Positions 10,231-55,742 are shown, counted from the first letter of the stretch. The stretch is 64,000 nucleotides of DNA from Gemmatimonadota bacterium (GCA_965116475.1 OZ220691.1:1056001-1120000); one strand, 5' to 3'. The notes: generated by a model not told the origin, from the sequence alone. Numbers and translations are program-made.

Positions 10231-11349
10231 ATGAATCCACTGACTCCACGCACGACCACTTTCCTTGCGCTGAGCACCTTTCTCCTTCTCGCGCCCGCGG
10301 GTCGGGCCGCGGCGCAGGAAACGCTGGCGCCGCCCGTTCCCGGCCCCCTTCCCATGGGGGCGGCGTGTGTCGTGCCGGATTCCATCGGGGAGGGACTCCG
10401 CCGGATCGCGCGACGGGTCGGCGACGCCGTCGGCGTCTCCGCACTGCACGTCGAGTCGGGCGCCCGGATCTCGCTGAACGGAGACCGGCCCTACCCGATG
10501 GCGAGCGTATCGAAGGTCCCCATGGCGCTCGAGTTCCTGCGGCGCGTCGACCTCGGGGAGATCGATCCCGCCGAGACGGTCGTCGTGACGGTGGAGGAGT
10601 TTCGCCCCGGGCACAGTCCGCTCGCCGCCTGGTCGGGGGCGCGGTCCGCGCGCCTCACCGTGGACAGCCTCTTCTCGCTCATGCTCGCCCAGTCGGACAA
10701 CACGGCGACCGACGTCATCCTCAACATGTCGGGCGGACCCGAGGCCGCCACGCGCCACCTGCACCGGCTGGGCGTCGAGGGCGTGCGCGTCGACCGCTCC
10801 GAGGCCCGCACCTTCGCGGACCTGGTCGGCCTCCCGGATACGATCCCCGAGAGCGAACTGTATCGCTACCAGTATTTCCGGCTGCGCGATGCCCTGCCCG
10901 ACGCGCACCGCCAGGCCGCGCGCGAGCGCTACGGCACGGACCCGCGGGACACGGCGACGCCGGACGGGATGACGGATCTCCTGCTTACGATCCACGAGGG
11001 CAGGGGACTCACGCCCGAATCGCGCGCCTGGATCCTCGACGTGCTGAACCGGTCGCGGTCAGGACGCGCGCGGATGCGGGGGCGGCTGCCGCAGTCCACC
11101 TTCGTCGCGCACAAGACGGGAACGATGGGCGGCGCGATCAACGACGTGGGGATCGTCAAGCTGCCGGATGGCGCGGGGCATCTCATCGTCTCGGTGTTCG
11201 TGAACACGCTGCGGCGGCCGACGTGGCGGCGGGAACGCACGATCGCGGAGATGACGCATCTGCTGTACGACTACTTTGGGGATGAATTCAGGGGGCGGGG
11301 CGCCGCGGTCGCGGTCGCGAGACGCTTCGGCGCCCCCTGCGTCGCCTGA
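10231..11349 (+). CDS. Class A beta-lactamase-family serine hydrolase
   Basis: SVSK (SxxK), SDN, DRSE, DT.TP, HKTGT, NDVG; signal peptide. Confidence 0.85.
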   Translation: MNPLTPRTTTFLALSTFLLLAPAGRAAAQETLAPPVPGPLPMGAACVVPDSIGEGLRRIARRVGDAVGVSALHVESGARISLNGDRPYPMASVSKVPMALEFLRRVDLGEIDPAETVVVTVEEFRPGHSPLAAWSGARSARLTVDSLFSLMLAQSDNTATDVILNMSGGPEAATRHLHRLGVEGVRVDRSEARTFADLVGLPDTIPESELYRYQYFRLRDALPDAHRQAARERYGTDPRDTATPDGMTDLLLTIHEGRGLTPESRAWILDVLNRSRSGRARMRGRLPQSTFVAHKTGTMGGAINDVGIVKLPDGAGHLIVSVFVNTLRRPTWRRERTIAEMTHLLYDYFGDEFRGRGAAVAVARRFGAPCVA

Positions 11350-11388
11350 GTGGCCTGAGTGGCGTGACCGGCCTGATCGGCCTGCTCA
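11344..11388. repeat. Degenerate 9-bp tandem repeat (GCCTGAGTG-like) x5 between convergent genes
   Basis: gcctgagtg gcctgagtg gcgtgaccg gcctgatcg gcctgctca; first unit contains the beta-lactamase stop. Confidence 0.7.
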
Positions 11389-11577
11389 GGAACTCCGGTT
11401 TCCGTTGGCGAAGATGCGGTACAGCGCCGCCCAGCCCACGGCGATGTACACAAGCCGGGCGAGGGGGCCGAAGGCCGCGGCCACGAAGTTGAACCCGATG
11501 AGGCCGATCAATCCCCAGTTGAGGGCGCCGGCCAGCAGCAGCGCGTTCGCCACTCTGTTGCAACTCTTCCCGTTCAT
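11386..11577 (-). CDS. DUF378 family small membrane protein
   Basis: GALNWGLIG..FN.VAA.FG..AR.VY..VG..ALY signature. Confidence 0.85.
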   Translation of the reverse strand: MNGKSCNRVANALLLAGALNWGLIGLIGFNFVAAAFGPLARLVYIAVGWAALYRIFANGNRSS

Positions 11578-11660
11578 GTATCTCTCCCGACTGAACCTGG
11601 CTGCGGGGCCGGCTGCAGGTCCGGCTGCGGCGCGCGGAACCCCTCCCGGTGACCCGTCGC

Positions 11661-11705
11661 GGTACGACGACACGGTACGAAGACATGGTACGAAGACATA
11701 GTACG
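11661..11705. repeat. 13-bp tandem repeat (GGTACGAAGACAT) ~3.5 copies in divergent intergenic region
   Basis: ggtacgacgacac ggtacgaagacat ggtacgaagacat agtacg. Confidence 0.85.
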
Positions 11706-11786
11706 CACGAAGATCGATCGGGTTTCGCAAGACCCGAATGCACTCGGACAGGGGCCTCAGCGCCGAGATGATGCGGAGATGATCAT

Positions 11787-12218
11787 TTGAGACGTCGCGA
11801 CTTCGTTGCCGCCCTTTCCGGCGCGCTCGCCGTGGCCGCCTGCGGAGACGGCGCCGGGCCCGGGACGCCCCCACCCGAGCCGCCGCCCGCGCCACCGCCC
11901 CCGCCGCCCGGTCCGGTGCCGGGAGCGAACGTGACGGTGAACATCGAGGACAACGCCTTCGTCGACCCGGCGGGGCGCCGCAACGGCGACGCGGAGGTGA
12001 CGATCCGGAGTGGCGAGACGGTGGGCTGGCGGCACGTCGGCGCGAACCCGCACACGGTGACGTCGACCGACGTTCCGTCCGGTGCGCAGGCCTTCGACAG
12101 CCGGACGATGAGCCACAACGACACCTTCACGGTCACGCCGAGCGTGGCGGGCACGTACGTGTACTACTGCGCCACGCACCCGAGCATCATGGTGGGAGCC
12201 CGCATCATCGTCACCTGA
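11787..12218 (+). CDS. Cupredoxin/plastocyanin-like copper-binding Tat lipoprotein
   Basis: RRRDF Tat motif, LAVAAC lipobox, Pro linker, PHTVT and YYCATHPSIM type-1 Cu ligands. Confidence 0.85.
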   Translation: MRRRDFVAALSGALAVAACGDGAGPGTPPPEPPPAPPPPPPGPVPGANVTVNIEDNAFVDPAGRRNGDAEVTIRSGETVGWRHVGANPHTVTSTDVPSGAQAFDSRTMSHNDTFTVTPSVAGTYVYYCATHPSIMVGARIIVT

Positions 12219-12370
12219 CCGCTGCCGGATTCAACCCTGCCCGAGGCGCGCGTGTCGTCTATCTGAACCTCCTTCGAGCTTCGGTCGAGAGCGGACACGA
12301 GCGGACGCCAATACTCGGCCGTGAGCAGATGACGATCACCCGGAATCGACGCGGATACGGCAGACACCGA

Positions 12371-14722
12371 ATGACACGCGCGCGACACGTGCGGCGGCTC
12401 CCGGGCCTTGCCCTTGCCCTGCTTCTTCTCCCCTGCGGAGTTCGCGCAGTCGGAGCCCAGGAAAGCGGGGGCTCGACCTCGACCATACAGGCCATGCGGC
12501 TGACCGCCGACGAGCGCATCGATCTGGACGGCCGCATCGAGGAATCGGTGTGGGGCCGCATCGAGGCGATCAGCGACTTCCGGCAGCGCGAGCCCGTCGA
12601 GGGCGGCACGCCGTCGCACCCCACCGAAGTCCGCGTCGCCTACGATCGCGACAATCTCTACATCGCGGCGATTCTGTTCGACGAGCCCGGCGAGATCCTC
12701 GCCCGCCAGCGCGCGCGAGACGCGTTTCTGTTCACGGACGACCGGTTCGCCTGGGTGCTCGACACGTTCGGGGACGGCCGCACCGGCTACCACTTCGAGA
12801 CCAACGCGGCCGGCGCCCTCAGCGACGGGCTCATCACGGGCACCGGCGGACGCGGCGGCGGTGGAGGGGGCGGCGGGTTCGGCGGCGTCAACCGCTCGTG
12901 GGACGGGATCTGGGAGGTGCGCACCGCGCGCCGTCCCGACGGGTGGTCCGCGGAGATCCGGATCCCCTTCCGCACGCTGAACTTCGTCCCGAACGGCGAG
13001 AACTGGGGCATCAACTTCCTGCGCTCGATCCGGCGCAACAACGAAGAGATCCTGTGGCGCGGCTACGGGCGGAACGAGGGCCTGAACCGCCTCGTGTTCG
13101 CGGGCGAACTGGAGGGACTCGAAGGTCTCTCGCAGGGGATCGGCCTGGAGGCGGTGGCTTCGGGCATCGGCAGTTGGCGCAACACCCCCGGCAACGCGGA
13201 CCCGACGACGTTCCCGCGCGACGTGAGCCTCGACCTCAACTACAGCGTGACGCCGAGTCTGCGCGCCTCCTTCAGCGTCAACACGGATTTCGCCGAGGTG
13301 GAGAGCGACCAGCGCCGCGTCAACCTCACGCGCTTCCCGCTCCGCTTCCCGGAGCGGCGCGACTTCTTTCTCGAGGGTTCGAGCGTGTTCACGTTCGCCC
13401 CCCGCAGCGGCCCGCAGCCCTTCTTCTCGCGGCGGATCGGGATCGAGGGCGGCCAGCAGGTCCCCATCGACTACGGGCTCCGCCTCACGGGCCAACTCAA
13501 CGGCGTCGACCTCGGCTTCTACCAGATGGGCACGGGCACCCACTCGTACGCCCCCGAGGATGAACTCGGGAACGCGGCCGGACCGGACCCCGCGGACTTC
13601 ATACGGTTCGAGCGGGAGGCGTTCACGGTGGCGCGCGCCCGGGTCCCCATCTTCGAGCAGTCGGCCATCGGCGCCATCTATACGCGCCGGAGCACGGCGG
13701 CCGACGCGGACGGCGTCCTGCCGGCGGACCGGCATACGCTCGGCGCGGACCTCGACTATCGGACCAACAGCCTGTTCGGGAACCAGAACTTCGAGGCCGA
13801 GGCGTTCATGGTCTGGAACTCGAATCCGGACCCGGCCGTGTCGCGGACCTTCCAGGATCTCTCCGCCTGGGGCGCCCGGATCAACTTCCCCAACGACCTG
13901 TGGTCGGGGCACGTCTCCTACCGGGAGTTCGGCGACGACTACAGTCCCGCGGTCGGGTTCGTGGCCCGGAACGACTTCCGCCGCGTGGAGCCGCGGATCG
14001 GGTTCTCCCCCCGCCCCGCCATCGACTGGATCCGGCAGGTGGAGGTCTCGGTCCAGTTGAGGAACCTGTGGGAAATGGGGTCCATGATCCTCGAGGAGCA
14101 GGAACTCCAGCTGAACTTCCTCGACATCGACTTCGAGAGCGGCGACAACCTGAGCTTCGAGGCGGTGCGGACGTACGAATTCCTCGACCGGCAGTTCGAG
14201 ATCAGCGACGGCATCGACATCATGCCGGGCGACTACACGACGTGGGACTATCAGATCCGGGGCCGGACGACGAGCCGCCGTCCCGTTTCGGTCCGGGGCG
14301 GGGCCAACATCGGCGGCTTCTGGAACGGCGACCGGGTGCGGGTCGACCTCAACGCGAACTTCCGGCCGAACCCCGGGATCAACCTGGAGACGGGCTACGA
14401 GCGCAACGCCGTGTACCTGCCGCAGGGCGATTTCGTCACGAACCTCTATCGCCTCGAGGGTTCATGGGACCCGACCCCGTGGATCGGCGTGACGAACCAG
14501 TTCCAGTACGACGATGTGAGCCGCGTGCTGGGGCTGTTCATGCGCTTCCGCTGGATCCTGAAGCCGGGCAACGACCTCTTCCTCGTCTACACCCACAACT
14601 GGCGGAACCTGGAGTCCGGGCTGCTCGATGAACCCGACGATTCCGACCTGATGGGGTGGATGGACCTGAGAACCCTCTCGCGCGGCGCCTCGGTCAAGCT
14701 GAACTACACGTACCGCTTCTAG
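12371..14722 (+). CDS. Carbohydrate-binding family 9-like / DUF5916 outer-membrane protein
   Basis: IDLDG..EE..W, YD..NLYIA, GWSAEIRIPF.TL, NTDFAEVE.D, ERRDFFLEG, FFSRRIG; C-terminal KLNYTYRF. Confidence 0.85.
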   Translation: MTRARHVRRLPGLALALLLLPCGVRAVGAQESGGSTSTIQAMRLTADERIDLDGRIEESVWGRIEAISDFRQREPVEGGTPSHPTEVRVAYDRDNLYIAAILFDEPGEILARQRARDAFLFTDDRFAWVLDTFGDGRTGYHFETNAAGALSDGLITGTGGRGGGGGGGGFGGVNRSWDGIWEVRTARRPDGWSAEIRIPFRTLNFVPNGENWGINFLRSIRRNNEEILWRGYGRNEGLNRLVFAGELEGLEGLSQGIGLEAVASGIGSWRNTPGNADPTTFPRDVSLDLNYSVTPSLRASFSVNTDFAEVESDQRRVNLTRFPLRFPERRDFFLEGSSVFTFAPRSGPQPFFSRRIGIEGGQQVPIDYGLRLTGQLNGVDLGFYQMGTGTHSYAPEDELGNAAGPDPADFIRFEREAFTVARARVPIFEQSAIGAIYTRRSTAADADGVLPADRHTLGADLDYRTNSLFGNQNFEAEAFMVWNSNPDPAVSRTFQDLSAWGARINFPNDLWSGHVSYREFGDDYSPAVGFVARNDFRRVEPRIGFSPRPAIDWIRQVEVSVQLRNLWEMGSMILEEQELQLNFLDIDFESGDNLSFEAVRTYEFLDRQFEISDGIDIMPGDYTTWDYQIRGRTTSRRPVSVRGGANIGGFWNGDRVRVDLNANFRPNPGINLETGYERNAVYLPQGDFVTNLYRLEGSWDPTPWIGVTNQFQYDDVSRVLGLFMRFRWILKPGNDLFLVYTHNWRNLESGLLDEPDDSDLMGWMDLRTLSRGASVKLNYTYRF

Positions 14723-14765
14723 CTCGGCCGTCGCGCGGCCGGCGGTCCGCCCCTTCGCTTCCGGG

Positions 14766-15398
14766 CTACCGCCCGAACGCCTCGAAGAAGGCGAGTTCGT
14801 GGCGCATGGCCTCGGCGTAGACCTCCGCCGCCCGCTCCGGCATGTCGGCGGCCAGGTCGTCGAGCAACCCCTCGAGGTCCCGGGCGAGGCGTTCGAACTC
14901 CCGGGAGCCGTATGTGTCGATCCACTCCGCGTACGGGTTCTCCTCGTAGTCGGTCGCACGAAGCTGCTGCCCAAGCCAGGCGTACAACCGCATGCAAGGC
15001 GTCATCGCGGCCAGAGTCTCGCCCACATCCGCGTTCCAGGCCGTCTCCGCGAGGAAATCTGTGTAGTCCTTCGCGGCGGCGTTGGGCGTGACAGACTCGA
15101 GATCGATTCGGAGTTGCTCGGCGTAGACGCGATGAAGTTCGAGTTCCTTGAGGACCCCTGCCATCAGGAAGACCAGCCGGCGCGCGACGTTCATCCGGTC
15201 GGCGGTGCGCGCGGCGGCCAGCGCGTAGGCGCTGAAGAAGGCCCGCAGGAAGAAGGCGTCCTGGGCCACGTAGCGCCGGAACGCCTCCGGATCGAGCGTC
15301 CCGTCGGAGAGGCCGCGCACGAACTGGGAGCGGAGGCAGGCACCGGCGAGGCCGGCGTTCCGGGCCCAGAGCGCCTCGTGCAGCGGTCGATTCGTCAT
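14766..15398 (-). CDS. tenA: TenA/THI-4 family protein (thiaminase II-like)
   Basis: F..Y..QD.FFL, PCMRLY, NPY.EWI.TY, E..FF. Confidence 0.85.
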   Translation of the reverse strand: MTNRPLHEALWARNAGLAGACLRSQFVRGLSDGTLDPEAFRRYVAQDAFFLRAFFSAYALAAARTADRMNVARRLVFLMAGVLKELELHRVYAEQLRIDLESVTPNAAAKDYTDFLAETAWNADVGETLAAMTPCMRLYAWLGQQLRATDYEENPYAEWIDTYGSREFERLARDLEGLLDDLAADMPERAAEVYAEAMRHELAFFEAFGR

Positions 15399-15417
15399 TC
15401 CGCCCCCGGCGCGTCCG

Positions 15418-15849
15418 TCAACTGAACAGCGTGCCCACGGCCTCGGGCGGGGCGGTGAAGTGGAAGCGCGGGACCGGGGCGCGGAAGACGGATCCGTCGC
15501 GGCGCCGGAAGTGGTAGAACCCCTCCATGTGACCCGTCGGACCCCGCAGGATGCAGAAACTGTTGTACCGGTGCGAATCCCCCGGTTCCAGCACCGGCGA
15601 CTGCCCGACCACGCCCTCCCCCTCGACCTCGTGTCCCCCCGCCACGAGATCGTGGATCAGCCAGTGGCGCCAGAAGAGTTGCGCCGTCTCCGTTCCCACA
15701 TTCTCGATCGTGATGTGGTAGACGAAGACGTAGCGCCAGGCCGCGGGATCCGAGTGTTCCGGCGCGTACTCCGGCCGCACGCGGATGGCCATCGCGTCCG
15801 GGACGATGGGGGGAACGCCGGCGTCGGGGGTCGTCTCATCAGGGGCCAT
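15418..15849 (-). CDS. apaG: ApaG family protein
   Basis: F.Y.ITIEN.G, RHW.I, EVEGEGVVG..P.L.PG, G.MEG.Y. Confidence 0.92.
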   Translation of the reverse strand: MAPDETTPDAGVPPIVPDAMAIRVRPEYAPEHSDPAAWRYVFVYHITIENVGTETAQLFWRHWLIHDLVAGGHEVEGEGVVGQSPVLEPGDSHRYNSFCILRGPTGHMEGFYHFRRRDGSVFRAPVPRFHFTAPPEAVGTLFS

Positions 15850-45232: not shown

Positions 45233-45625
45233 TCAGAGCTTCCCGCACCGCTCCAGCAAGTGCTCGGCGTCGGCGATGGCTTCCCGCGCTGGCGCCCGGT
45301 CTCGATGCTCCCCGACCCTCGCGACCTTTACCTGGATCACGTTGTCCGGGTTGTCGTCCACCGTACTCGCGCTGATGTAGTTCACGACCAGCGCGTCAGT
45401 GATCAGACGGCCAGTCGGGAAGCTTTCGCGTGTACGCATGCGTTCCGCCCTCATGAACCCGAGTGAACGATCACCGGCGGTGATCATGTATCCGAGACGC
45501 TGCAACGTCACGCGAACGCAGTCGAGCCCATCAGCTTGCACACTTGCCGGACGTGTCATGATCAGGGGTTGTACTGCACAGGCCATCGTTGCCGTCACGG
45601 CGATGGACAGCGCAAGGCGTTTCAT
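45233..45625 (-). CDS. Hypothetical lipoprotein
   Basis: GGAGG RBS, MKR + hydrophobic stretch + TMAC lipobox-like. Confidence 0.7.
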   Translation of the reverse strand: MKRLALSIAVTATMACAVQPLIMTRPASVQADGLDCVRVTLQRLGYMITAGDRSLGFMRAERMRTRESFPTGRLITDALVVNYISASTVDDNPDNVIQVKVARVGEHRDRAPAREAIADAEHLLERCGKL

Positions 45626-45769
45626 CGTTGCCTCCAGGAGTCGCGAACCCGGTTCCCTCCGAAGCCGGAGGTCTGCCCGTCATCCCGATGACGCGAGAAC
45701 CTGCTGCACGGTCACATCGCCGGAAGAGATCGAAGGCTTTCAGAGACGCATCGGCGCCAAGCAATCGGC

Positions 45770-45915
45770 TTACCGGACCACGGGCTGGAGCTTGCCGCAC
45801 TCGTACTCCGGCGGTGCCTCGGCACCGAGGAGGTGGCGACGAAGTAGTCCCAGCGGCGGCGCATCATGTAGGGCTCGTTGCCGAAGCCTTGGCCCCGGTT
45901 GCGGAGCAGCAGCGG
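45770..45915 (-). repeat. Degenerate second copy of the 3' end of the S9 peptidase gene (left island boundary)
   Basis: Aligns with 52852-52997; 48 bp identical (45838-45885 = 52921-52968); encodes NRGQGFGNEPYMMRRRWDYFV/frameshift/HLLGAEAPPEYECGKLQPVVR*. Confidence 0.92.
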
Positions 45916-46099
45916 GCCCGAACGAGCAGCGGAAGGGGCACTCTGGTCACGGGCCTATCGTTTCGGTCCACCGCTTGAATCCGTGGCCACACCACGACTA
46001 GTTTCTGACGAACCGGCACCATCGGAGCCGCGCGCGTCAACCGACGCTTGATCGGTGGGCTCTAGCGATCCAAGAGGGAGAACTCAAGGAGGTAGCGCG

Positions 46100-46828
46100 G
46101 TGCGGAATTCGAACGGTGCCATTCCGGCGATCAGCTTGTTCACCGGTGCGGGGGGCTTGGACCTTGGGTTCGCGAGGGCAGGTTTCGACATACGTGTCGC
46201 GGTCGAAACCGACCCGGCCGCGGTGGCTACACTTCGCCGCAACTGGCGAAGTACACCCGTAATCACGCGCGGGCTCGAAGAGGTATCAACCGGTACGCTA
46301 CTCGACAAGGCCGATCTGAGCGTCGGGGAGGTGGGTATGGTCTTCGGCGGTCCTCCTTGCCAGTCCTTTTGCATCGCCGGAAACGGCCGCGGGCTTGAAG
46401 ACCCGCGCGGGCAGCTGTTGCTTGAGTTTTGTCGCGTTGTCCGTGAAGCACGGCCCAGCGTGTTCCTGATCGAAAACGTGCCGGGACTGCTCCGCGTACC
46501 CCATATCGCTAGTGCAATCCATGACGCCGTGAACCGCAGCTCAGGATCGGACTACCACGTCTCACACGACATTCTCAACGCCGCGGAGTACGGCGTACCG
46601 CAGCACCGGAAGCGGGTCTTCTTTGTCGGCTGGAGGGAATCCGGCGACTTCTATTTTCCGAAGCCGACGCACTACGTGGAAGGCCGACGTCGCCACAGCG
46701 GACTCAAGCCCGCTGTCACTGTCGCGCAAGCTTTATGGGGGCTACCCGAGCCGGATCCGCCATCTGCAATAGCCTATCGTGTTGCAAAGACAATTCCCGA
46801 TCGGAATCGGCAATGGTACGGAAAGTAA
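46100..46828 (+). CDS. DNA (cytosine-5) methyltransferase, alpha subunit (motifs I-VIII), M.AquI alpha-like
   Basis: AAGGAGG RBS then GTG at 46100; SLFTGAGG, GGPPCQSF, D.RG.L, ENVPG, YGVPQHRKR; ends before the TRD. Confidence 0.9.
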   Translation: MRNSNGAIPAISLFTGAGGLDLGFARAGFDIRVAVETDPAAVATLRRNWRSTPVITRGLEEVSTGTLLDKADLSVGEVGMVFGGPPCQSFCIAGNGRGLEDPRGQLLLEFCRVVREARPSVFLIENVPGLLRVPHIASAIHDAVNRSSGSDYHVSHDILNAAEYGVPQHRKRVFFVGWRESGDFYFPKPTHYVEGRRRHSGLKPAVTVAQALWGLPEPDPPSAIAYRVAKTIPDRNRQWYGK

Positions 46829-47886
46829 CGAACCACCAAGCCACTGCCCACGCGGACACTACTCTCGAAAAGATCCGCCTCGTTCGTGAGGGCAAGCGGC
46901 TATCCGGTCGACACAGCGCCTTCGGAGCCGCCTACCGACTCCTAGACCCCGAAAAGCCTTCACCTACGGTAACACGTAGTGGTTTTCGAGATTTCATCCA
47001 TCCTACTGAAGATCGACTCTGTACTGTTCGAGAGCTCGCGCGGCTCCAGACCTTCCCGGACAACTATGTGCTCGAAGGGCGTAGGTGCGACACCTACGCC
47101 GGCAGTCGCTATAGGCAACAAACCCAACACGAACAACTTGGCAATGCCGTACCCCCTCGACTCGCGTATGCACTCGCCGGAGCGATTAGGCGGCAGCTCT
47201 TCGACAGACGGGATCCTCCATCTCTCGTTCGCCCGATTTCCCCAACTGTGTTTCGCCAACTTGACTCCACATATCCGGACACGGATCTAGGGAACAAACT
47301 CAACCCTCTTGATGAACTCATCTATATCATCCTTTCAAGGCGAACCAAGGAGAATCAGTACCAAGAGGCGTATCGGAATTTGCGTCGTATATATCGCGGC
47401 TGGAGTCGTGTGCTCGAAGCTGATTTGGAGGAGGTCGAACAACTCTTGCAACCAGTCGGTCTCGCTCGCCAGAAGGCACGAGCGATCAAAGCGCTGCTTA
47501 CTACTGTCCAAGCTGATATGGGTCGCGTGTCTTTAGCATCTCTAAAATCTGCTTCTGATTCCGCCGCTTATCATTACCTCCGGTCGCTACCCGGCGTGAG
47601 CGACAACACGGCCAAGTGTGTTATGCTGTACTCACTCGGCCGTGATGTTCTCCCCGTCGACACACACACATATCGCGTGTCACGACGTCTTGGCCTGATC
47701 CCACAATCCGTATCGTACTACCGGTCGCCGCGCTTACTAGCGAAAGCAGTACCACGCCCCTTGCGGCGACGATATCACATCGTGTCAATCCTACACGGCC
47801 GGAAGGTCTGCAGAGCTCACTCGCCACGCTGTGACGTCTGCCCGGTGACGAACAGTTGTCCGCACTCCACCCACCCCAAGCTCTAG
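46813..47886 (+). CDS. C5-MTase beta subunit (TRD + motifs IX/X, M.AquI beta-like) fused to HhH-GPD/endonuclease III-family glycosylase
   Basis: PSPTVTRSGFRDFIHP..DR..TVRELARLQTFPD, QLGNAVPP; then LDELI..ILS, GLA.QKA, LPGVSDNTA, PVDTH, C-x6-C-x2-C-x5-C. Confidence 0.88.
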   Translation: MVRKVTNHQATAHADTTLEKIRLVREGKRLSGRHSAFGAAYRLLDPEKPSPTVTRSGFRDFIHPTEDRLCTVRELARLQTFPDNYVLEGRRCDTYAGSRYRQQTQHEQLGNAVPPRLAYALAGAIRRQLFDRRDPPSLVRPISPTVFRQLDSTYPDTDLGNKLNPLDELIYIILSRRTKENQYQEAYRNLRRIYRGWSRVLEADLEEVEQLLQPVGLARQKARAIKALLTTVQADMGRVSLASLKSASDSAAYHYLRSLPGVSDNTAKCVMLYSLGRDVLPVDTHTYRVSRRLGLIPQSVSYYRSPRLLAKAVPRPLRRRYHIVSILHGRKVCRAHSPRCDVCPVTNSCPHSTHPKL

Positions 47887-50144
47887 TTATACGCCGGCGT
47901 TAGCGCCTCATGGGCAAGCTCAATGCACTCGGCCAGGCATTGGTATCGGAAGTCGTCATAGTCTACTGGGTCGACGGAATTGTCAGGACCCCAGCCAAGG
48001 TTCGGAAGTTCGTCCTGCAGCCGCCGGGCGACGAATGCCTCGCAGATTATCTCTGCGATTATAGCCCTAGCCTGTGGATCCTTTTGGCCCGGCCACTTTT
48101 CGCCTGTGCTCGGATCAAGATCCGGGCCGAGCACTCGTGCAAGAGTCGCATGTCTTGCCGCAATCTGCACCAAATATGAATCTGTCGCGTCCCACCTGAA
48201 TCGACGACCCGGCGCGCCGAAGTGAGACACATCTTCAAACTTGAAGTTGATCCTAGGCTTGCCGCCGATCTCGCGAAACACGATGATCGCGTCGTCCTTG
48301 TGGTGCTCCAGCTGAGCCTTCAGCACGGCCTTTGCCTCGGTATCTGAGACCGCTCGCACTGACGCCGTAGCAACTCCAAGACGACCATCGAACTCTAGCG
48401 TGACGTGCGACCGATTCAATGAGACATCGCCGTGGCGAGGGGTTACATGAACCGTCGCCCCATCCAGCGAAGGATCGGCGTAGATCGTAATGTGCTTGTT
48501 TCGTCCGGGGATTGATGTATAGCGACGTTGTGAAAACTGAAGATCTTGATCCAAGTCGATGACGCCCTCGATTTGGTCGCGTACTGCCACTTTGAGGATG
48601 TGAACGGCGCTCTCGGCACAAATCTCGATCGTCGCGAGATCCGTCAACTGATCGCCGCTGACCTCGACGGAACCACGAAACACGCCAGGGTGCTCGTCCA
48701 TCAGTTGAAGTTCGATTGTGTCGTGAGACACAAACAGATTACCCGCCGTCGCAGCGATCTCACACTCGACGACACGGTCTCCATCGGCCTCTTTCCGATA
48801 GTAGATTCCCAACCGCTTCGCTTTACCGATCTCAAGACGGAGAGTAGCTGGGATTACGGTTAGGCCCATCTGGAGCTCCGGCCCGGACCCTGGTCCTTCG
48901 GGTGTGTCGAGCTTTTCCGCCAACTGCTCGCCCAACCTATCTAGCGCCTGCCGGAGCTCAGAACCAACGCGTTGCTCGGTCGGCGGAGTTAGTTCCTTTT
49001 GAAGCTCGGATAACGCCTTCTCGATCACAGGACGGACTGCATCGTGAACCGCATGCACAAAAGGATGTTCGCCATTCAGCCCTAAGCGATCAGGATCGGT
49101 CACCTGTGTCGGATTGAAAGCATCGCGTTGTATGCTTGGGTCCGCCTCTCGAGCCCGCTCGAATTCGTCATACTGCAGCAGAAGTTCGGGGACGTGAGGG
49201 AGATACAACTCCCCGAACAGATGTTGGCCCGCTAGTGTGTCCGATCCTCGCGCACCCAGGAAGCCGATATCGTGCCCCGTCCTGCCGTCGACGATGAGGA
49301 CCCCGCCCTCGCTTTTCCACAGGCGGGTGATCGAACGTCCGCCTAACCGCAATGTCTCTTCAGATCTCTGGAGCAATAGCCGAGCGCGTTGCCCGTCCGA
49401 ATACGTAACGAACTCCGGCAGCTCCATATCTTCCTCCACCAGCACCGCGCCTACCGGCATGAACCCCTCTATAAAACGATCTCGACCGACCCTCCCCCCT
49501 CTCATCTCCCTCATCTGTAGCGGGATGAGCGGCAAACCCTGCGGGTGATATCGTATCTCAACGTGTCGCTCCAGGTCCCCGGCAAGCGTATCGAAACGTG
49601 GCTTCGTGATGTCGGCGAACGGCCTAAGCGTTACGACGGTCCCGTTCCCCGCGTGCAGCTCCAGACGCGCTCGCACGTCATCATCCGCCGCCGCCGAAAT
49701 CACTACTTTCGATCGTCGTCCCTCAACCACCTTGCATGCGGAGTAACGATCGCCATGAATGCTCTCGAACAACACTTCCCCTAGCACGCCGACATCCTTG
49801 GCACCTCTCGCGTTGAGTCCTCGCACCGTCGCACTGTCGAAGCTACTCGCAGGATCGCCATACTGTAGGAGACGATCCTCCATAACCTCACGGCTCATCC
49901 CCTCGAATCGATCTCGAATGACAAGGCACTCCTGGCCTCGCGTCGTGTCGTAGTCAAGAACAATCGGCCGTGCGACCAATTCTCTCTCTTGTAGCTCACC
50001 CTTCTCAACCAGGCGGTACGCAGAATCTCGCGCATTGGTTATTAGCTCGACGAGTCCCCGGACAACGAATCCGCTCATAGCACGTGACGCGTTGCGTCTC
50101 AAATAACGTGCCGCGACTGGCAGGTCGATCATTTCGTCAGGCAT
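47883..50144 (-). CDS. GHKL (MORC/MutL/Hsp90-type) ATPase with long uncharacterised C-terminus
   Basis: ELITNARDS, IRD..EGM, RG..ARGAK, GNGT.VT Bergerat-fold motifs. Confidence 0.8.
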   Translation of the reverse strand: MPDEMIDLPVAARYLRRNASRAMSGFVVRGLVELITNARDSAYRLVEKGELQERELVARPIVLDYDTTRGQECLVIRDRFEGMSREVMEDRLLQYGDPASSFDSATVRGLNARGAKDVGVLGEVLFESIHGDRYSACKVVEGRRSKVVISAAADDDVRARLELHAGNGTVVTLRPFADITKPRFDTLAGDLERHVEIRYHPQGLPLIPLQMREMRGGRVGRDRFIEGFMPVGAVLVEEDMELPEFVTYSDGQRARLLLQRSEETLRLGGRSITRLWKSEGGVLIVDGRTGHDIGFLGARGSDTLAGQHLFGELYLPHVPELLLQYDEFERAREADPSIQRDAFNPTQVTDPDRLGLNGEHPFVHAVHDAVRPVIEKALSELQKELTPPTEQRVGSELRQALDRLGEQLAEKLDTPEGPGSGPELQMGLTVIPATLRLEIGKAKRLGIYYRKEADGDRVVECEIAATAGNLFVSHDTIELQLMDEHPGVFRGSVEVSGDQLTDLATIEICAESAVHILKVAVRDQIEGVIDLDQDLQFSQRRYTSIPGRNKHITIYADPSLDGATVHVTPRHGDVSLNRSHVTLEFDGRLGVATASVRAVSDTEAKAVLKAQLEHHKDDAIIVFREIGGKPRINFKFEDVSHFGAPGRRFRWDATDSYLVQIAARHATLARVLGPDLDPSTGEKWPGQKDPQARAIIAEIICEAFVARRLQDELPNLGWGPDNSVDPVDYDDFRYQCLAECIELAHEALTPAYN

Positions 50145-50166
50145 GACGTAATCTCACGCGATAAGG

Positions 50167-50775
50167 TTAGAGGTCGAACTGCTTTCTACCTTCCTGAATG
50201 AAGCGTGTGAGCCTACGGCTCTCTTCTCGATCGGGCAACCCCTCGATTGTACGTTCGACACGGGCCAATCTCCCAGAGGCCACAAAAGGGGAGGCGTCGG
50301 GAAAGAGCTTAAGAGCAGCGAGAAACGCATCCCGACCAATCGCCTGCATCCTTCTTCCGGCTTGAAACTGTCCGAAGGCGTCGGAATCGACGATCGGCTG
50401 AATCAACCGTGAGTAATCCACCGGTCGCTTCGTCGCGGTTACGTTGTGTCGCTCGTGGACAGCTTTGAGTCCTCGGGCTCGTTCTATCCCCGGGCGCGTG
50501 AGAGCGAATCGTTTGATCCGACCCATTCGATCACCCGCTGTCTTCCGCATGTCCTGATCTGTCACTAACTTCCCTGCCCGCGACTTCTTCGCTTCAGAAA
50601 GGTGAACCCTAACAGCATCTTTGTCTGGAAAATCCGGGTAGCGGCGCCAACAGAAAAGGGCGGGAAACATCTCGTGAGCCTTTACCGCGATCGCCTCCAG
50701 GTCGCTCTCCCCGCCGAGTTCGTAGAGCGCCAGAACAACCAGTAACGTCTTGTTTACTTCTGCGTTGTCATTCAC
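50167..50775 (-). CDS. Hypothetical protein, probable winged-helix N-terminal domain
   Basis: LALYELGG...E.IA..A..MFP..F, wing ending FALT..G; tightly spaced in the operon. Confidence 0.65.
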   Translation of the reverse strand: MNDNAEVNKTLLVVLALYELGGESDLEAIAVKAHEMFPALFCWRRYPDFPDKDAVRVHLSEAKKSRAGKLVTDQDMRKTAGDRMGRIKRFALTRPGIERARGLKAVHERHNVTATKRPVDYSRLIQPIVDSDAFGQFQAGRRMQAIGRDAFLAALKLFPDASPFVASGRLARVERTIEGLPDREESRRLTRFIQEGRKQFDL

Positions 50776-50790
50776 TATCTGAATCCTAGA

Positions 50791-52689
50791 TTAGACGAGA
50801 TCAAATTCAACCAGCGTTTGCTCCGGGTAGAATGTTGCGACCAGATAGTCGCCTTCCCGAACCCCAGCATTCCTCAGCTGGCGATACGTTCCCCAGAAGC
50901 TATTGCCCCGTATCGTCACAGGCACGACTTCGCCCGTGGGAAGGCTACAGCGCCACTCTTCTCTCTGCGTCGAGAGGGCTGACGGAAAGGCGAAAACACC
51001 GCTAAGGTTGAAGCGGCTCACGCGGTACGTTACGATGAAGCGCCCCGGACCTTCCCAGCCGGAAGTGATGATGTTCGTGGACCGTGAGCCAAGCCATTCG
51101 TTTCGGCGTTCCGAGAGCAGCTGGTTCGGGACGCGGCGTCCCCGCAAGGCGTAGACGGCAGTCGCAACTCTGGTAAGAATGGGGCTTCGGGTCAACACCG
51201 AGGCCATCGGCTCGGAGAAGCCGCGCCTCTTCATCCCGTCGACCATATCTTGGAGGAGAATGACCCCTTGGTGCTCTTCTATCAGTTCTACCAAGGCGTG
51301 CTCGGACTCCGACAGGATCTCGGCCTGCAGTGGCTTGCCTCGGAGTCGCGCTCGACCCGCGGTAACTTCGAACCCGGAATGCTGTCTTAGGACGAACTCG
51401 ACCACGTCCCGTGGCGGCACCGGATCCAATCTGGGGTTGCGGAGAAGACCCGAGTGAAGTTGGACAATTGGCAAGGGAGCCGTAACGGCTAACACCTTCC
51501 GTGCTTGCCGGACCAGCGATGAATCCGGAGAGGGTTTGGGGACCAGATACCCGAGAACGCGATCAAGACTTGAGCCGCGCGGCGCAATAAGTGTGGCGGC
51601 GTGTCCCGCAGAGAAAGGCGAGAGTTCTTCGAGGGCTGATTCCTTCACTGCACCAACACGTCGAAGTTCAGCGCGTGCCTTACCCTTCAGCCTCTTTAGT
51701 GCCTCGCTGAGCTGTCCTGTCTCGACCCAAGCTGAGCGACCCTCCACACCAATCCATACGCGGGTTTCTGGATCCCAACTGATCTTCGGAATCAAGCCGA
51801 CCTTAGACAACACGCTCAGGGGACTGACAGAAAGGTCGTCTCGTAGGACTTCCCCAACCGACAACCGTTCGACCAAGACTGTGGCGGAAGCAATTCCCCC
51901 TGCGAGATCGATCTCTCGAACCACTCGAGAACCGATCGGTAACCGTAGACCCGATTCGGCCAACTTTTTCAGATGTCGGGTTACGATCTGTCGGACCCTT
52001 TCGCGCGTGATTCCAGTTCTCTCGCCAAGTTCCTCGAATGTAAACTGCTCAGCGGAACGGTAGCGAAGACGCGCAAGTACCAGATCTCGATTGCGGGCCC
52101 CTAAGTTCGCACATAGAGCCTGAACCTCTTCGTCCAAGGTCCTGGCTGATGCAATCGACAGGAGAAGCTCGGCGCTCAAGGCCGGAACGCATATGTCGTC
52201 CTGTTTGGTTTCCCAGCTCATTTCAACGAGCTTTTCCATCGGAATCGTACCCAGAACGTCCACTAACTCACGGAGCTTTGCAAGCCGGGTCGGGCTGAGA
52301 ACACCGGACAGGTCACAGTCAGACAGATCTCCGAGAGTATGGCAACCCTGTTGATAAAGCGCCTCCAGCGCACCTTTGTCGAGGGCGAGACTTGAGGTCG
52401 GAACACGGGCTAGGTACGAGGGCACGTCAGAGACGGTCGGCTTGTAGTCCGTGACGACCTCTTGGGTTGCCGTGATTGCCCCGAGACGCCGGAGAAAATC
52501 GACAATCTCAGTCACGGTTCCGGGGCCTATCTGATCAATCCGCAAGAGGTCTGCAGTCGATAGGCCATCCAGTGCCCCCACGGTCCTCAATCGATTGCGA
52601 AGCAGGAGGTTCCTTGTGCGACTCGAAAGATCCGTTCCGGCAATCGACATATGCTGAATGGCAACAGGTACCTGTACAACCTCGCGCAC
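50791..52689 (-). CDS. RNA polymerase alpha-CTD-like repeats + sigma70 region 4 HTH + further domains
   Basis: DLSSRTRNLL.RN.L.TVG.L...S..DLL.I..IG..TV.EI (alphaCTD); T.EELG...GITRERVRQI (sigma4); no sigma region 2. Confidence 0.82.
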   Translation of the reverse strand: MREVVQVPVAIQHMSIAGTDLSSRTRNLLLRNRLRTVGALDGLSTADLLRIDQIGPGTVTEIVDFLRRLGAITATQEVVTDYKPTVSDVPSYLARVPTSSLALDKGALEALYQQGCHTLGDLSDCDLSGVLSPTRLAKLRELVDVLGTIPMEKLVEMSWETKQDDICVPALSAELLLSIASARTLDEEVQALCANLGARNRDLVLARLRYRSAEQFTFEELGERTGITRERVRQIVTRHLKKLAESGLRLPIGSRVVREIDLAGGIASATVLVERLSVGEVLRDDLSVSPLSVLSKVGLIPKISWDPETRVWIGVEGRSAWVETGQLSEALKRLKGKARAELRRVGAVKESALEELSPFSAGHAATLIAPRGSSLDRVLGYLVPKPSPDSSLVRQARKVLAVTAPLPIVQLHSGLLRNPRLDPVPPRDVVEFVLRQHSGFEVTAGRARLRGKPLQAEILSESEHALVELIEEHQGVILLQDMVDGMKRRGFSEPMASVLTRSPILTRVATAVYALRGRRVPNQLLSERRNEWLGSRSTNIITSGWEGPGRFIVTYRVSRFNLSGVFAFPSALSTQREEWRCSLPTGEVVPVTIRGNSFWGTYRQLRNAGVREGDYLVATFYPEQTLVEFDLV

Positions 52690-52851
52690 GATCTAGCTCC
52701 CTTCCTGGCGTCCCCGAAACTCGACACGGCGATTAGTCATGGCGAAGCACCTCGGGACAACGCTGGAGAGATCCCACTTGACCGTAGCGCCCTAAAACCG
52801 CGTAGTTGATCCAAAACAGTTACCGCTCGGGATTCGTTGAGCACGGGGCGG

Positions 52852-55200
52852 TTACGGCACCAGGGGCTGCAGCTTGCCGAACTCGTACTGCGGGGGCGGT
52901 TCGGCGCCGAGGAGGTGGCGGACGAAGTAGTCCCAGCGGCGGCGCATCATGTAGGGCTCGTTGCCGAAACCGTGGCCGCGGTTCGGGAAGAGGAGGAGGT
53001 CGAAGTCCTTGTTCGCGGCGATGAGGGCGTCAACGACCAGCATCGTGTTCGAGTGCGGGACGTTCGTGTCCATCGTGCCGTGGGCGATGAGGAGCTTGCC
53101 CACCAGGTTCTCCGCCACGAGCTGGTTTGCCTGGTTGTCGTAGTTCGTGGCGCCGTCGGCGTACTCCTCCAGCAGCCCCTGGTACTTCTCGCCCCAGTCG
53201 TCCTCGTAGTTGCGGTTGTCGTGGTTTCCGGCCTGCGAGACGGCAACCTTGTAGAAATCCGGGTAGCGCAGGATCCCCGAAGTGGAGGCGAAGCCGCCGC
53301 CGGAGTGGCCGTAGATCCCGACCCGGTCGATATCGATCCAGGGGTGGCGCTCGGCGAGTTGGCGGATGCCGGCGATCTGATCCGGGAGCCCGTTGTCTCC
53401 CATGTTTCCGTAGTAGGCGTCCTGGAACGTCTTCGAGCGCCTCGGCGTCCCCATCGCGTCGAGTTCGATGACGACGAACCCGAGTTCGGCCAGCGACTGC
53501 AGATCCCGGTGCGCCGCGCGGAAGTTCCGGCTCCCCACGCTCCCGCTCTGCGGCCCCGGGTAGAGGTAGTTGATCACGGGATACGTGGCGGCCGGGTCGA
53601 AGTTCGAGGGACGGAACATGAGCCCGTGCAGATCCGTCTCGCCGTCGCGCGCCTTCACCGTGAACGGGATCGGCGGCTGCCAGCCGGTCCGCTCCAGGCG
53701 TGAGATGTCGGCCCGTTCGACGGTCTGCAGCAGGTCGCCGTCCATGTCCCGGACGACGGTGACCGGCGGGATCGTGGGCGTGGAGTACTGGTCGACGAAC
53801 GTCTCGCCATCCGGCGCGAGCCAGACGACGTGGTTCGCGCTGTCGGGCGTGAGGAGTTGGACGTCGCCCCCGTCGAGGCCGGCGCGGTACAGGTACATGA
53901 AGTAGGGGTCGCCGGGCTCCCGCCCGTTCCCCATGAAGAGGATCTCCCGAGCCTCCGCGTCGACCGCCACCACGTCCTCCACCTGCCACGCGCCCGAGGT
54001 CACCTGCCGCTTCGGTTCTCCGGTGTCCGCGTCGTAGAGGTAGAGGTGCCCCCAGTCGTCGCGCTGGGAGTACCAGAGGATCTCGTCGGACTCGGAGAGG
54101 TAGCGCCAGTTGGCGTGGGACTCGAAGAAGGTCTCCACGACCTCCTCGAACAGGTCGCGGACCTCGCCCGTGCGCGCATCGGCCATGCGGACGAGCGCCC
54201 GCTTGTGGTCGCGCGAACTCGACACGAAGACGAAGCGGGAGCCGTCGGCGCTCCACTCGACGTCGGAGAACGTCCCGCCGCAGGCCACGTGGTCGCAGAC
54301 CGTGGAGCGGTGCTGGTCCGGGGGCATGTCCAGGCGGACGACGCGGCTCGCCGCCGGCGCCTCCGTGTCGATCACCACGCGGTGGATGCGGAAGATGACC
54401 GAGTCCTCCGGGAGCGGGTAGCGCCACGCCTCGAGTTCGGGGTGCCCGACCTCGGTCGTGACCATGTACATCATCCCCACGCCGCGGGCGTCGTGCTGGA
54501 AGGTGGCGATGCGCCGCGAGTCGGGAGACCACTTGAGCACGGGACGGTCGCTCTTCACCCAGCCCGCGTTGTTCGTCGCGTAGCCGAAGTCCGCGACGCC
54601 GTCCTCGGTGAGTTGGGTCTCCTCCCCCGTGGCCAGATCCCGGAGCCACAGGTTGTGGTCGCGGATGAAGGCCGCCCTGGTCCCGTCCGGTGACACGATG
54701 TCGAAGCGGCGGGCCGTCGTGCCCTCGGGCGCCGGGACCGCCTCGCAGCGGTCGGCGTCGAGCCCGCAGGCGTACGTCTCTCCCTCGACGTCGACTTCGA
54801 AGCGGATCCTCCCGCCCTCGAGCGCGAGATCCCCGAACGGGAGCGCGAAGGCAGTGTGCTCCTCGCCGGTTGCCGCGGTGAGCGCGGCGGCGATGCGGGC
54901 GTGGTCGAAGGCGCGCTCCCGCGTCCCCGCGGCCGGATCGATGAGGACGTACTCGTTGCCCCCCTCGAACCGGGTCCGATACCAGAACCGCCCGTCCTCC
55001 AGCCAGACCGGGATGACGGAAGCCCCGAGCACGAGCGGATTCACCTGGCTCGCGAGCCTCCCCTCCGCCCGCGCGTAGTCCGCCACCGTCAGCGCGTCGG
55101 GCGCCTCCTGGGCGAACGCACCCGGCGTCGGTGAGAGGTTGGCGGCGATCAGCAGCGTTGCGCTGGCTATCCGGCTCATGCTTGCGATCCTGTTGGACAT
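52852..55200 (-). CDS. S9B dipeptidyl peptidase IV-family protein
   Basis: DPP IV propeller; YPGPQ, GHSGGG nucleophile, HGTMD.NV, RGHG; ATG at 55200. Confidence 0.93.
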   Translation of the reverse strand: MSNRIASMSRIASATLLIAANLSPTPGAFAQEAPDALTVADYARAEGRLASQVNPLVLGASVIPVWLEDGRFWYRTRFEGGNEYVLIDPAAGTRERAFDHARIAAALTAATGEEHTAFALPFGDLALEGGRIRFEVDVEGETYACGLDADRCEAVPAPEGTTARRFDIVSPDGTRAAFIRDHNLWLRDLATGEETQLTEDGVADFGYATNNAGWVKSDRPVLKWSPDSRRIATFQHDARGVGMMYMVTTEVGHPELEAWRYPLPEDSVIFRIHRVVIDTEAPAASRVVRLDMPPDQHRSTVCDHVACGGTFSDVEWSADGSRFVFVSSSRDHKRALVRMADARTGEVRDLFEEVVETFFESHANWRYLSESDEILWYSQRDDWGHLYLYDADTGEPKRQVTSGAWQVEDVVAVDAEAREILFMGNGREPGDPYFMYLYRAGLDGGDVQLLTPDSANHVVWLAPDGETFVDQYSTPTIPPVTVVRDMDGDLLQTVERADISRLERTGWQPPIPFTVKARDGETDLHGLMFRPSNFDPAATYPVINYLYPGPQSGSVGSRNFRAAHRDLQSLAELGFVVIELDAMGTPRRSKTFQDAYYGNMGDNGLPDQIAGIRQLAERHPWIDIDRVGIYGHSGGGFASTSGILRYPDFYKVAVSQAGNHDNRNYEDDWGEKYQGLLEEYADGATNYDNQANQLVAENLVGKLLIAHGTMDTNVPHSNTMLVVDALIAANKDFDLLLFPNRGHGFGNEPYMMRRRWDYFVRHLLGAEPPPQYEFGKLQPLVP

Positions 55201-55382
55201 CCTGGGTCCTCTGCGGCATGCGAAGTCGCAAGATGCCGACCGTCCCCCGCGCCGGCCACCGCGGTCTCGCGAGGTGTCCGGTGGCGCGCCGGGCGGGTAT
55301 TTTGGAGAGGATGACTTCCGGCCGGAACGGCGTCCGGCGGGCCGTGCGTTGAGCGGGGCGAAGGAAGGCGGAAGGAGGGCAC

Positions 55383-55742
55383 GTGTTGCAACCTCGGCTG
55401 GACGCTCGGAGAACGCGCTCCCTGCTCGACCTCGCGGCAACCAAGGTGCAGGTCGTACAGAGCCGGGCGAGCGCGAAGGACTACCTGGATGTGAACGCTC
55501 TGATTCACCTCGGGGGGATCGACCTTGGTCAGGCCCTGGGCGCGGCCACAGCGGTCCACGGCGATCGCTTCAATCCGATCCTGACGCTGAAGGCGCTGAC
55601 CTTCTTTGACGATGGCGATCTGTCGGAGGTCCCGATCATGGTCCGCGACCGACTCGCGGCAGCCGTCCGGGGCGTCAACCTGGAAGGCCTGCCGAATTTC
55701 CCCGCTCGCCAAGGTCTTCTGGCGTCCCGAGGGTCGTCATGA
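55383..55742 (+). pseudogene. C-terminal fragment of AbiEii/AbiGii-like nucleotidyltransferase
   Basis: DLAATK...QSRA..KDY.D, LKAL.FF.DGD; the N-terminal GGTA/R.S.D.D motifs are absent. Confidence 0.65.

Follow-up and report, generated by a model that had tools for sequence, protein, structure and literature searches.

A 64,000-nt stretch of DNA from a Gemmatimonadota bacterium (GCA_965116475.1 OZ220691.1:1056001-1120000; hereafter the window) contains five genes in which a split C5 cytosine methylase, with a DNA glycosylase domain fused to its smaller subunit, faces a three-gene operon encoding a sigma-70 region 4 (sigma4) protein, a winged helix–turn–helix (wHTH) protein and a MORC-like GHKL ATPase. 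These genes form a ~6.9-kb mobile cassette in a marine Gemmatimonadota genome, and its two units are inherited together. Our best reading, which we hold tentatively, is that the cassette is a methylation-linked, MORC-type defense system.

Joint inheritance is seen in related loci, where the five genes occur together, in support of an initial annotation made from the sequence that took them to form one system. In a 5.8-billion-protein collection, scoring the best 8,000 candidates by shared words yielded 23 matches to the ATPase at E ≤ 0.001: a self-fragment at 100% identity, 21 proteins at 39–76% and one at 26%. A metagenome scan with the single protein returned nothing, and a scan with an alignment returned seven loci. 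The ten close loci lie in Myxococcota, Longimicrobiales and Gemmatimonadales genomes (L002–L004) and in metagenomes (L082–L088). All ten keep the order sigma4–wHTH–ATPase as far as their contigs reach, and a convergent methylase is present in 6 of the 7 that are informative, across several phyla and at 44–56% ATPase identity. Both methylase halves converge on and abut the ATPase gene in five close loci, and in L002 the smaller subunit (beta) can be followed up to the contig end; three others end before the methylase position, and L004 has frame breaks. Because the methylase matches end ~30 nt or less from the ATPase matches, the genes abut tail to tail. At least ten contigs, matched by identical size, are common to the lists of ATPase and beta homologues.

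Layout and insertion of the cassette

The open reading frame (ORF) map and the GC profile agree on five intact genes arranged as two convergent operons in a low-GC island, as initially annotated. Island GC content is 0.577 (45913–52851) versus 0.683 in the rest of the window, and is the lowest among all 6.9-kb stretches of the window. The last genes of the two operons overlap at their stops in the sequence CTAG (47883–47886), where both stop codons are TAG and have 2 nt in common. On the minus strand, the ATPase and wHTH genes are spaced by 22 nt, and the wHTH and sigma4 genes by 15 nt.

Direct repeats of 144 bp, whose copies are 84–89% identical, bracket the island. An empty site is found in 6 of 13 same-genus loci of the flanking peptidase gene (L135, L137, L140, L141, L142 and L147), where the window's left flank is joined straight to the end of the peptidase gene and the repeated segment is present as a single copy. 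Of 35 same-genus genomes, only 1 contains a genuine homologue of the sigma4 protein, the remaining matches there being sigma4 stretches of 50–70 residues, and full-length beta occurs in 1 of 401 sampled genomes of the phylum, with 36 other matches covering only the glycosylase part. Given the repeats, the empty sites, the sporadic occurrence and the low GC content, we count the cassette as a sporadic mobile insertion. Two public sequencing runs, from two studies, yield contigs that cross the whole island with identical sequence and break off at the repeats; the assembly may itself derive from one of these runs. No RNA run was listed for the island, and a Hi-C run gave no reads on it.

Insertions recur in the genus at the 3′ end of the peptidase gene, making it a hotspot. 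Different inserts (about 1.4, 8.6, 20 and 6.6 kb) occupy it in relatives G013:C4, G025:C1, G020:C1 and G017:C4, and every one is accompanied by a partly duplicated gene end. The G017 insert (L101, G017:C4:3432000-3451900, 8892–15727) contains a sigma4 homologue that is 68% identical and ends at residue 538, followed by a 739-aa fusion of a GNAT acetyltransferase and a PIN domain on the opposite strand and then by an rve-type transposase. Several database sigma4 homologues of 504–566 aa resemble this shortened form.

Integrase and replication genes are absent from the ORF set of the island, no tRNA was found in the 64-kb window, and plasmid and phage records (PLSDB, INPHARED) gave no match at 1e-8. 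Pattern scans of the island for promoters and terminators returned hits at chance level, with no excess of terminators. A 200-aa ORF on the plus strand (45399–46001) is probably not a gene; it matches no family and overlaps both the left repeat and the methylase operon's promoter region.

Table 1 Features of the cassette and its insertion site (positions in the window)
Feature	Position	Strand	Description
C5 methylase alpha	46055..46828	+	257 aa; motifs I–VIII; FxGxG, PCQ, ENV, QxRxR present
Methylase beta::EndoIII-type HhH-GPD with 4Fe-4S loop	46813..47886	+	357 aa; motifs IX–X
MORC-like GHKL ATPase	47883..50144	-	753 aa; AlphaFold2 fold and Bergerat motifs
Winged-helix partner	50167..50775	-	202 aa; N-terminal MarR/F-93-type wHTH, C-terminal helical domain
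Multi-HTH sigma4 protein	50791..52689	-	632 aa; alphaCTD-like HhH, sigma-70 region 4, 360-aa C-terminal part showing HARE-HTH-like features
Left direct repeat	45770..45912	.	Duplicate of peptidase gene 3′ end; left insertion border
Right direct repeat	52852..52995	.	True 3′ end of DPP-IV/S9 peptidase gene, the insertion site
DPP-IV/S9 peptidase gene	52852..55440	-	Hosts the insertion site at its 3′ end

The split methylase and its fused glycosylase

The larger methylase subunit (alpha) and beta both have Pfam profile matches, in keeping with the initial call of a methylase alpha subunit and a beta::HhH-GPD fusion. Alpha covers positions 3–166 of the 324 in PF00145 (2.2e-46, 159 bits) and matches TIGR00675 (9.4e-44); beta covers positions 211–323 of the same profile (7e-11, 42.6 bits) and adds an HhH-GPD domain (PF00730; 6.1e-10, 39.8 bits). 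One PADLOC model, MTase_II PDLC03378 (344 positions), is shared consecutively by the two subunits, with positions 5–204 on alpha and 205–330 on beta, which argues for a single methylase cut inside the variable region. The motifs of a C5 methylase are likewise divided, with FxGxG, PPCQ, ENV and QxRxR visible in alpha and TVRE..LQTFP and GNAVP in beta. By its motifs, the enzyme is thus a C5 methylase split in the manner of M.AquI, between motifs VIII and IX. The subunits further match MTase_II, DruM and DrmMII, generic models that pick up any C5 methylase.

All 6 loci compared, comprising the window and five others at 55–60% protein identity, keep the split, and in each the subunits lie in different frames and overlap by 16–19 nt (16 nt in the window). 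Throughout these loci, alpha ends with RNxxWYGK(x)-stop, and beta starts with an ATG (as in the window) or GTG that sits within a Trp codon of alpha, and reads MVRKxVxNHQ. The longest ORF for beta (46735–47886, 383 aa) is as first reported, but its likely start is the ATG at 46813, in agreement with the database gene call and all relatives. Conservation in 6 of 6 loci, together with the identical contigs of the two public runs, rules out a sequencing error as the origin of the split. A programmed frameshift from alpha to beta is disfavored: the junction shows no slippery site of the form X XXY YYZ and the beta ATG/GTG is kept, so we prefer to read alpha and beta as two translationally coupled genes. 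The genes of M.AquI also overlap. As described in PMC3404938, that enzyme is similarly split in its variable region, with motifs I–VIII on the larger piece and the remainder of the variable region together with motifs IX–X on the smaller. By contrast, the small subunit of the cassette carries an additional glycosylase domain of 200 aa, and activity of the heterodimer is here a prediction.

The best solved relative of the beta HhH-GPD domain is the endonuclease III EndoIII-1 of D. radiodurans (8a5c/4unf; 7e-27), and the domain also matches TIGR01083 (5.8e-25); the match to Mig (1kea; 1e-7) is far weaker. The catalytic Asp in the VDTH motif, noted at the outset, is kept as Asp309 in 49/49 aligned relatives, split and unsplit, as are four Cys of an iron–sulfur cluster (Cys-x6-Cys-x2-Cys-x5-Cys). 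At the position of the EndoIII Lys (Lys120 of E. coli Nth), which is the mark of a bifunctional enzyme, 46 of the 49 have Lys and two have Thr or Tyr; the window copy is the only one with Asn (Asn291, codon AAC, 47605–47607), reading LPGVSDNTAK versus LPGVNDKTAK in the family. Because Lys and Asp are kept, the family enzyme is probably a glycosylase/apurinic-apyrimidinic (AP) lyase. The Asn suggests that the window copy may be weakened or monofunctional, possibly through a recent change. Mig is not known to have the lyase Lys that the cassette's glycosylase family keeps.

Single-gene fusions of a C5 methylase with an HhH-GPD domain, 580–671 aa in length and all with the Lys and Asp, are present in other metagenomes and genomes (P0254, P0256–P0260, P0265, P0271, P0272, P0291, P0294 and P0304). 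It follows that the fusion of methylase and glycosylase predates the split and is more widespread. A literature search found no description of a methylase–HhH-GPD fusion. Cytosine methylases are paired with T:G mismatch repair enzymes in Dcm–Vsr and M.MthTI–Mig.MthI. As in those pairs, the methylase of the cassette is accompanied by an enzyme that could correct deamination of 5-methylcytosine (5mC), but here the two are fused and the repair domain is nearer to EndoIII than to Mig.

The MORC-like ATPase, its partners and its wider family

The initial domain calls for the three-gene operon have held up on structural and profile comparison. For the 753-aa protein, called a GHKL ATPase, the AlphaFold2 model (predicted local distance difference test (pLDDT) score 80.9, from 23 aligned sequences) gives MORC/Hsp90-type fold matches. 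Using VIA-align, residues 9–390 superpose on MORC3 (Z 19.6 over 292 residues), GRP94 (18.6) and SMCHD1 (18.4), with further matches to MORC2, TRAP1, ParE and MutL over a total range of Z 14–19.6; Foldseek matches the protein to ParE/GyrB/Hsp90 at 1e-9. We call it MORC-like by fold, the scores of MORC3, GRP94 and SMCHD1 being effectively tied. A GHKL domain and an S5-like transducer occupy residues ~9–390, long helices span residues 361–412, and two immunoglobulin (Ig)-like domains, with structural matches to SbsC and intimin, span residues 425–625. The Bergerat motifs are kept among 98 family representatives, at ~22–25% identity to the window protein: each of E33, N37, D78, G82, G109, G114, K116 and G168 is either invariant or conserved to at least 90%. 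N344, R353, H360 (invariant), H665 and E698 are further polar residues that are kept, which raises the possibility of a second site for catalysis or binding.

Neither the ATPase nor the 202-aa protein has a match in Pfam (E ≤ 0.1), PADLOC or NCBIfam, and the core pair fits no PADLOC model, in line with the initial annotation, which gave no named system with the composition of the cassette. The ATPase does not match PF13589 (HATPase_c_3) at E ≤ 0.1, and a 26%-identical relative matches that family. Fifty-two family ATPases gave no family-level PADLOC match and one 31-residue motif match, to TmtA. PF19191/PF19192 (HEF_HK/Response_reg_2) have no match in either protein at E ≤ 0.1, and Pfam finds no nuclease or TIR domain in the ATPase; the C-terminal extensions that distinguish the families paraMORC1–5 include an RE-fold nuclease, TIR, an HxH domain and ExxxH in S5. 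A profile search against the sequences of solved structures returned only an Hsp82 stretch (E 0.047) for the ATPase, and Atlas look-alikes of its residues 626–753 are unnamed clusters only, giving no nuclease lead.

The model of the 202-aa protein (pLDDT 93.0) likewise bears out its wHTH-like call, with residues 1–111 forming a MarR/F-93-type winged helix (Z 9–10.6) and the remainder being helical. A profile search against solved-structure sequences found nothing significant for this protein (best E 0.3), and we infer its association with the ATPase from gene order only. The third protein matches Sigma70_r4 (3.8e-8) and RNA_pol_A_CTD (2.8e-6) in Pfam, in agreement with its description as a fusion of the RNA polymerase alpha subunit's C-terminal domain (alphaCTD) with sigma4. 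Its 24 aligned relatives all have Sigma70_r4, 15 have alphaCTD and 1 has HARE-HTH. Look-alikes of its C-terminal part in the Atlas are sigma-like or unnamed (0.90–0.91) or HARE-HTH (0.77), with no nuclease lead. Its PADLOC matches are only local, to PglW (25.7 bits) and MzaA (21.4 bits), and a 60-residue sigma4 stretch matches the MzaA model NF041931 at 32.6 bits versus a cut-off of 800. In PADLOC v2, the cassette does not fit the definition of MZA, Tiamat, BREX/Pgl, Druantia, DISARM or Shedu.

The wHTH–ATPase pair extends well beyond the close relatives. An exhaustive HMMER search matched the ATPase to 596 representative clusters at E ≤ 1e-3, 38 of them at ≤1e-30, and most of the proteins are ~740 aa long. 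We surveyed 80 genomic loci, mostly from metagenome-assembled genomes (MAGs) of many phyla. In 56 of the 80, the gene immediately upstream of the ATPase gene encodes a wHTH homologue (51 by a strict position filter plus 5 with an overlong predicted ATPase start). A contig of the cultured Mycobacterium sp. E183 (L016) also carries the pair. Of the 24 loci lacking this partner, 8 fall in a Dehalococcoidia subfamily of shorter proteins, and in 3 its position is taken by DndB. The Dehalococcoidia proteins (L071, L073, L075–L079 and L081) are 505–560 aa long, match only ATPase residues 19–322, have a different conserved neighborhood and probably have a different function. The DndB loci (L022, L033 and L038; 6.9e-97) form one ATPase clade, and L038 has an unsplit C5 methylase ~5 kb upstream of the ATPase.

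Accessory genes vary across the family and include HARE-HTH (8 loci), MazE with PIN (9–10 loci) and two unnamed small families. The sigma4 gene is upstream of the pair in the window's clade and downstream of it in L044, L062 and L067. In L017, a Shedu gene (SduA, DUF4263; 12245–13528, 2.6e-88) lies directly downstream of the ATPase gene, and in L026 one is nearby (14102–15679); these arrangements look like split counterparts of the GHKL–Shedu fusion VcSduA/paraMORC3. In a 58-sequence tree, partner type tracks ATPase clades, a pattern that speaks for the defense reading given below but is suggestive only, because kin share labels. A PADLOC defense match at E < 1e-20 lies within 6 kb in 8 of 13 loci, or in 9 of 13 if a generic hydrolase model is counted; this comparison took in 140 of 229 eligible proteins, from the initial 13 of the 22 loci that qualified, and had no background control. 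These matches include Shedu, Hma, type IIG restriction–modification, SoFic, PD-T4-6, a BrxH-like helicase with HNH, methylases and GajA-like proteins; of the other loci, two have no match at 1e-10 and two have weaker matches only (1e-13 and 5e-18). By itself, the wHTH–ATPase pair forms the nucleus of a large family that has no name and is often found beside known defense genes. The pair is widespread but absent from current defense catalogs, in that PADLOC has no model for it.

In IMG/VR, 12 loci matched, and the pair is present in two of them (L102 and L110). In the others (L103–L109 and L111–L113), only part of the ATPase is matched, namely the N-terminal part in nine of the ten, and nine of these ten are giant-virus bins. 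The nine giant-virus MAG contigs are 23–35% identical and have no partner gene; eight match the GHKL and transducer region, and L113 matches residues 279–386 only.

Interpretation and relation to known systems

If the cassette is a methylation-linked, MORC-type defense system, as we tentatively favor, a division of labor among its proteins can be proposed. The methylase would mark the host's own sites, and the fused glycosylase would deal with T:G base damage at those sites. The ATPase dimer would be loaded by the sigma4 and winged-helix proteins, acting as DNA readers, and would close on DNA upon ATP binding, as MORC, MutL and Hsp90 do. The resulting clamp could then act on unmarked incoming DNA, either by blocking it directly or by recruiting a nuclease encoded elsewhere. 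That the three-gene operon takes the place of a restriction enzyme is something we only infer. More broadly, the wHTH–ATPase pair could be the invariant engine of defense-island modules, with the third gene an exchangeable adaptor or effector.

MORC-type GHKL ATPases silence transposons in plants and animals. A more specific proposal, which we consider unlikely, is that the cassette confers nuclease-free immunity resembling this eukaryotic silencing, in which 5mC would mark self DNA and the ATP-gated clamp, brought on by winged-helix and sigma4/HARE-like DNA readers, would entrap or compact unmethylated incoming DNA and so silence it without cutting it. If true, the cassette would represent a prokaryotic forerunner of the partnership between MORC proteins and DNA methylation. 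In a bolder variant of this proposal, the sigma4/alphaCTD protein would imitate RNA polymerase surfaces and serve as a decoy through which phage take-over factors are sensed.

The initial annotation treated the methylase and the three-gene operon as one system. Their shared travel, with the operon order kept in 10 of 10 close loci and the methylase in 6 of 7 informative ones, supports this part of the claim, but a general need for methylation does not stand. Several observations weigh against a methylation-linked defense system. Most wHTH–ATPase loci have no methylase, so the pair needs none in general, and reliance on methylation does not characterize the family. One close locus, L084, has the three-gene operon, but the 1.4 kb of contig downstream of it contains no methylase. 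The tree pattern of partner types is inflated by kinship. The count of defense neighbors is uncontrolled for background, as stated above, and the glycosylase of the window itself may be weakened, to judge from Asn291. Finally, there is no evident effector: no nuclease, helicase or other known killing domain is recognized when the five proteins are compared with Pfam, PADLOC and NCBIfam (the initial annotation likewise recognized no PD-(D/E)xK, HNH or helicase gene), and residues 626–753 of the ATPase and 270–632 of the sigma4 protein match no domain.

Many of these observations are also accommodated by two independent modules that travel together, namely a methylation-independent sensor or defense module built from the wHTH protein and the GHKL ATPase, with or without the sigma4 protein, and a self-contained orphan methylase that brings along a repair enzyme. 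This arrangement would explain why the pair, in the 56 of 80 loci that have it, is accompanied by PIN, HARE-HTH, DndB, Shedu or nothing and mostly not by a methylase, and why unsplit methylase::HhH-GPD fusions occur as single genes elsewhere. It also suits L084, where CBASS-type genes encoding a ThiF-like and a SAVED-domain protein (403–3959) lie just upstream of the methylase-less operon. Independent modules would not, however, be expected to keep a tail-to-tail layout in 6 of the 7 loci that are informative, which span phyla at ~50% identity, to yield at least ten contigs common to both homologue lists, or to confine the split methylase to loci of the window's clade, and we regard this alternative as somewhat unlikely.

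A second alternative is that the cassette is a repair unit and has no role in immunity, with the ATPase bringing in or stimulating the glycosylase where 5mC made by the cassette's methylase has been deaminated, by analogy with the action of MutL on Vsr. MutL–Vsr cooperation and recurrent neighborhoods combining GHKL proteins, cytosine methylases and Vsr, both described in PMC2292703 and PMC8011034, would fit this idea, as would an HhH-GPD enzyme standing in the place of Vsr and the lack of a recognized nuclease. The ATPase family nonetheless accompanies PIN toxins, Shedu and HARE-HTH in defense islands that have neither methylase nor glycosylase, and the cassette is sporadic and mobile; a pure repair function is therefore improbable in our view.

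The glycosylase/AP-lyase could instead be the restriction arm, in which case the target-recognition part of beta would guide base removal and nicking to unmethylated foreign sites under control of the GHKL ATPase. We know of no HhH-GPD restriction enzyme, and this proposal seems to us quite improbable: the closest solved relatives are repair enzymes, and the window copy has Asn where the lyase Lys is expected. On the other side, the family keeps Lys in 46 and Asp in all of the 49 aligned sequences, the domain matches PADLOC PDLC03398, a model named 'Type II nicking endonuclease' (1.8e-8), and GHKL modules usually partner a DNA-cutting enzyme, according to the portion of PMC2292703 drawn on here. 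Least probable of all is a cassette outside biological conflict, devoted to transcriptional regulation, chromosome organization or mobile-element maintenance with the sigma4/alphaCTD protein as regulator, which would fit the classic transcription modules (sigma4, alphaCTD and winged helix) and the lack of a recognized effector but sits poorly with the defense-island context of the family, the conserved GHKL motifs, and the absence of integrase and replication genes.

A methylation-linked, MORC-type defense cassette thus remains the reading we prefer, and it bears on several wider questions. Since 2008, eukaryotic MORC-type ATPases have been predicted to stem from bacterial restriction-like systems. 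To our knowledge, only nuclease-bearing bacterial versions, VcSduA and Tiamat, have been tested so far. Because the cassette is compact and complete, has no recognizable nuclease and is linked to a writer of 5mC, it offers a direct test case for a methylation-dependent MORC-like clamp and its effector. It also presents two biochemical oddities, a naturally split C5 methylase kept across phyla and an EndoIII-type glycosylase joined to one subunit of a methylase.

The partner of MzaA in MZA is a MutL-like protein. MZA and the cassette are alike in that a large sigma4-bearing protein (MzaA; NF041931, PDLC02203) is encoded with a GHKL-type ATPase in a defense context. By contrast, only the sigma4 stretch matches, the cassette has no Z1 or AIPR genes, and its ATPase matches no PADLOC model.

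A literature search, which did not extend to supplementary family lists, found no paper describing the gene set of the cassette. The initial annotation's statement that no named system has this composition therefore stands, but the kind of system, a GHKL ATPase with a cytosine methylase and T:G repair, is in print, as the accessible parts of PMC2292703 and PMC8011034 attest. Iyer et al. 2008 (PMC2292703), in the part available, predicted MORC and paraMORC ATPases in restriction–modification operons, often with cytosine methylases and Vsr. The cassette shares with them a GHKL and S5-like module with intact motifs, sporadic mobile spread, and methylase and T:G repair neighbors. The operons in that part of the paper mostly encode superfamily 2 (SF2) helicases and nucleases, whereas neither is recognized in the cassette, and it makes no mention, for those families, of two Ig-like domains or a constant winged-helix partner. 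Bellieny-Rabelo et al. 2021 (PMC8011034), again to the extent accessible, described pairs in which a Response_reg_2 protein accompanies a HEF_HK paraMORC protein, with a C5 methylase and Vsr. These pairs parallel the cassette in combining a small partner gene, a GHKL protein, a C5 methylase and an enzyme that repairs 5mC deamination, but they are unrelated to it at the Pfam level; the partner in the cassette is a winged helix and not receiver-like, and its repair enzyme is a methylase-fused HhH-GPD domain and not Vsr.

Two systems link GHKL proteins to nucleases in phage defense. In the available portion of PMC12137116, VcSduA is a GHKL ATPase fused to a DUF4263 Shedu nuclease, and phage protection requires the ATPase. 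The resemblance lies in the GHKL ATPase and, within the family, in the separate Shedu gene directly after the ATPase gene in L017; the window ATPase differs in having no DUF4263 or other recognized nuclease domain, and no Shedu gene is present in the window. Tiamat, as presented in the accessible part of a preprint (bioRxiv 10.64898/2026.09.30.754977), is a GHKL protein with a nuclease that defends against phage. The cassette shares the known theme of MORC-type ATPases in restriction–modification contexts and differs from these systems in its ATPase family, in its partner proteins, in having no recognized nuclease or helicase, and in its split, glycosylase-fused methylase.

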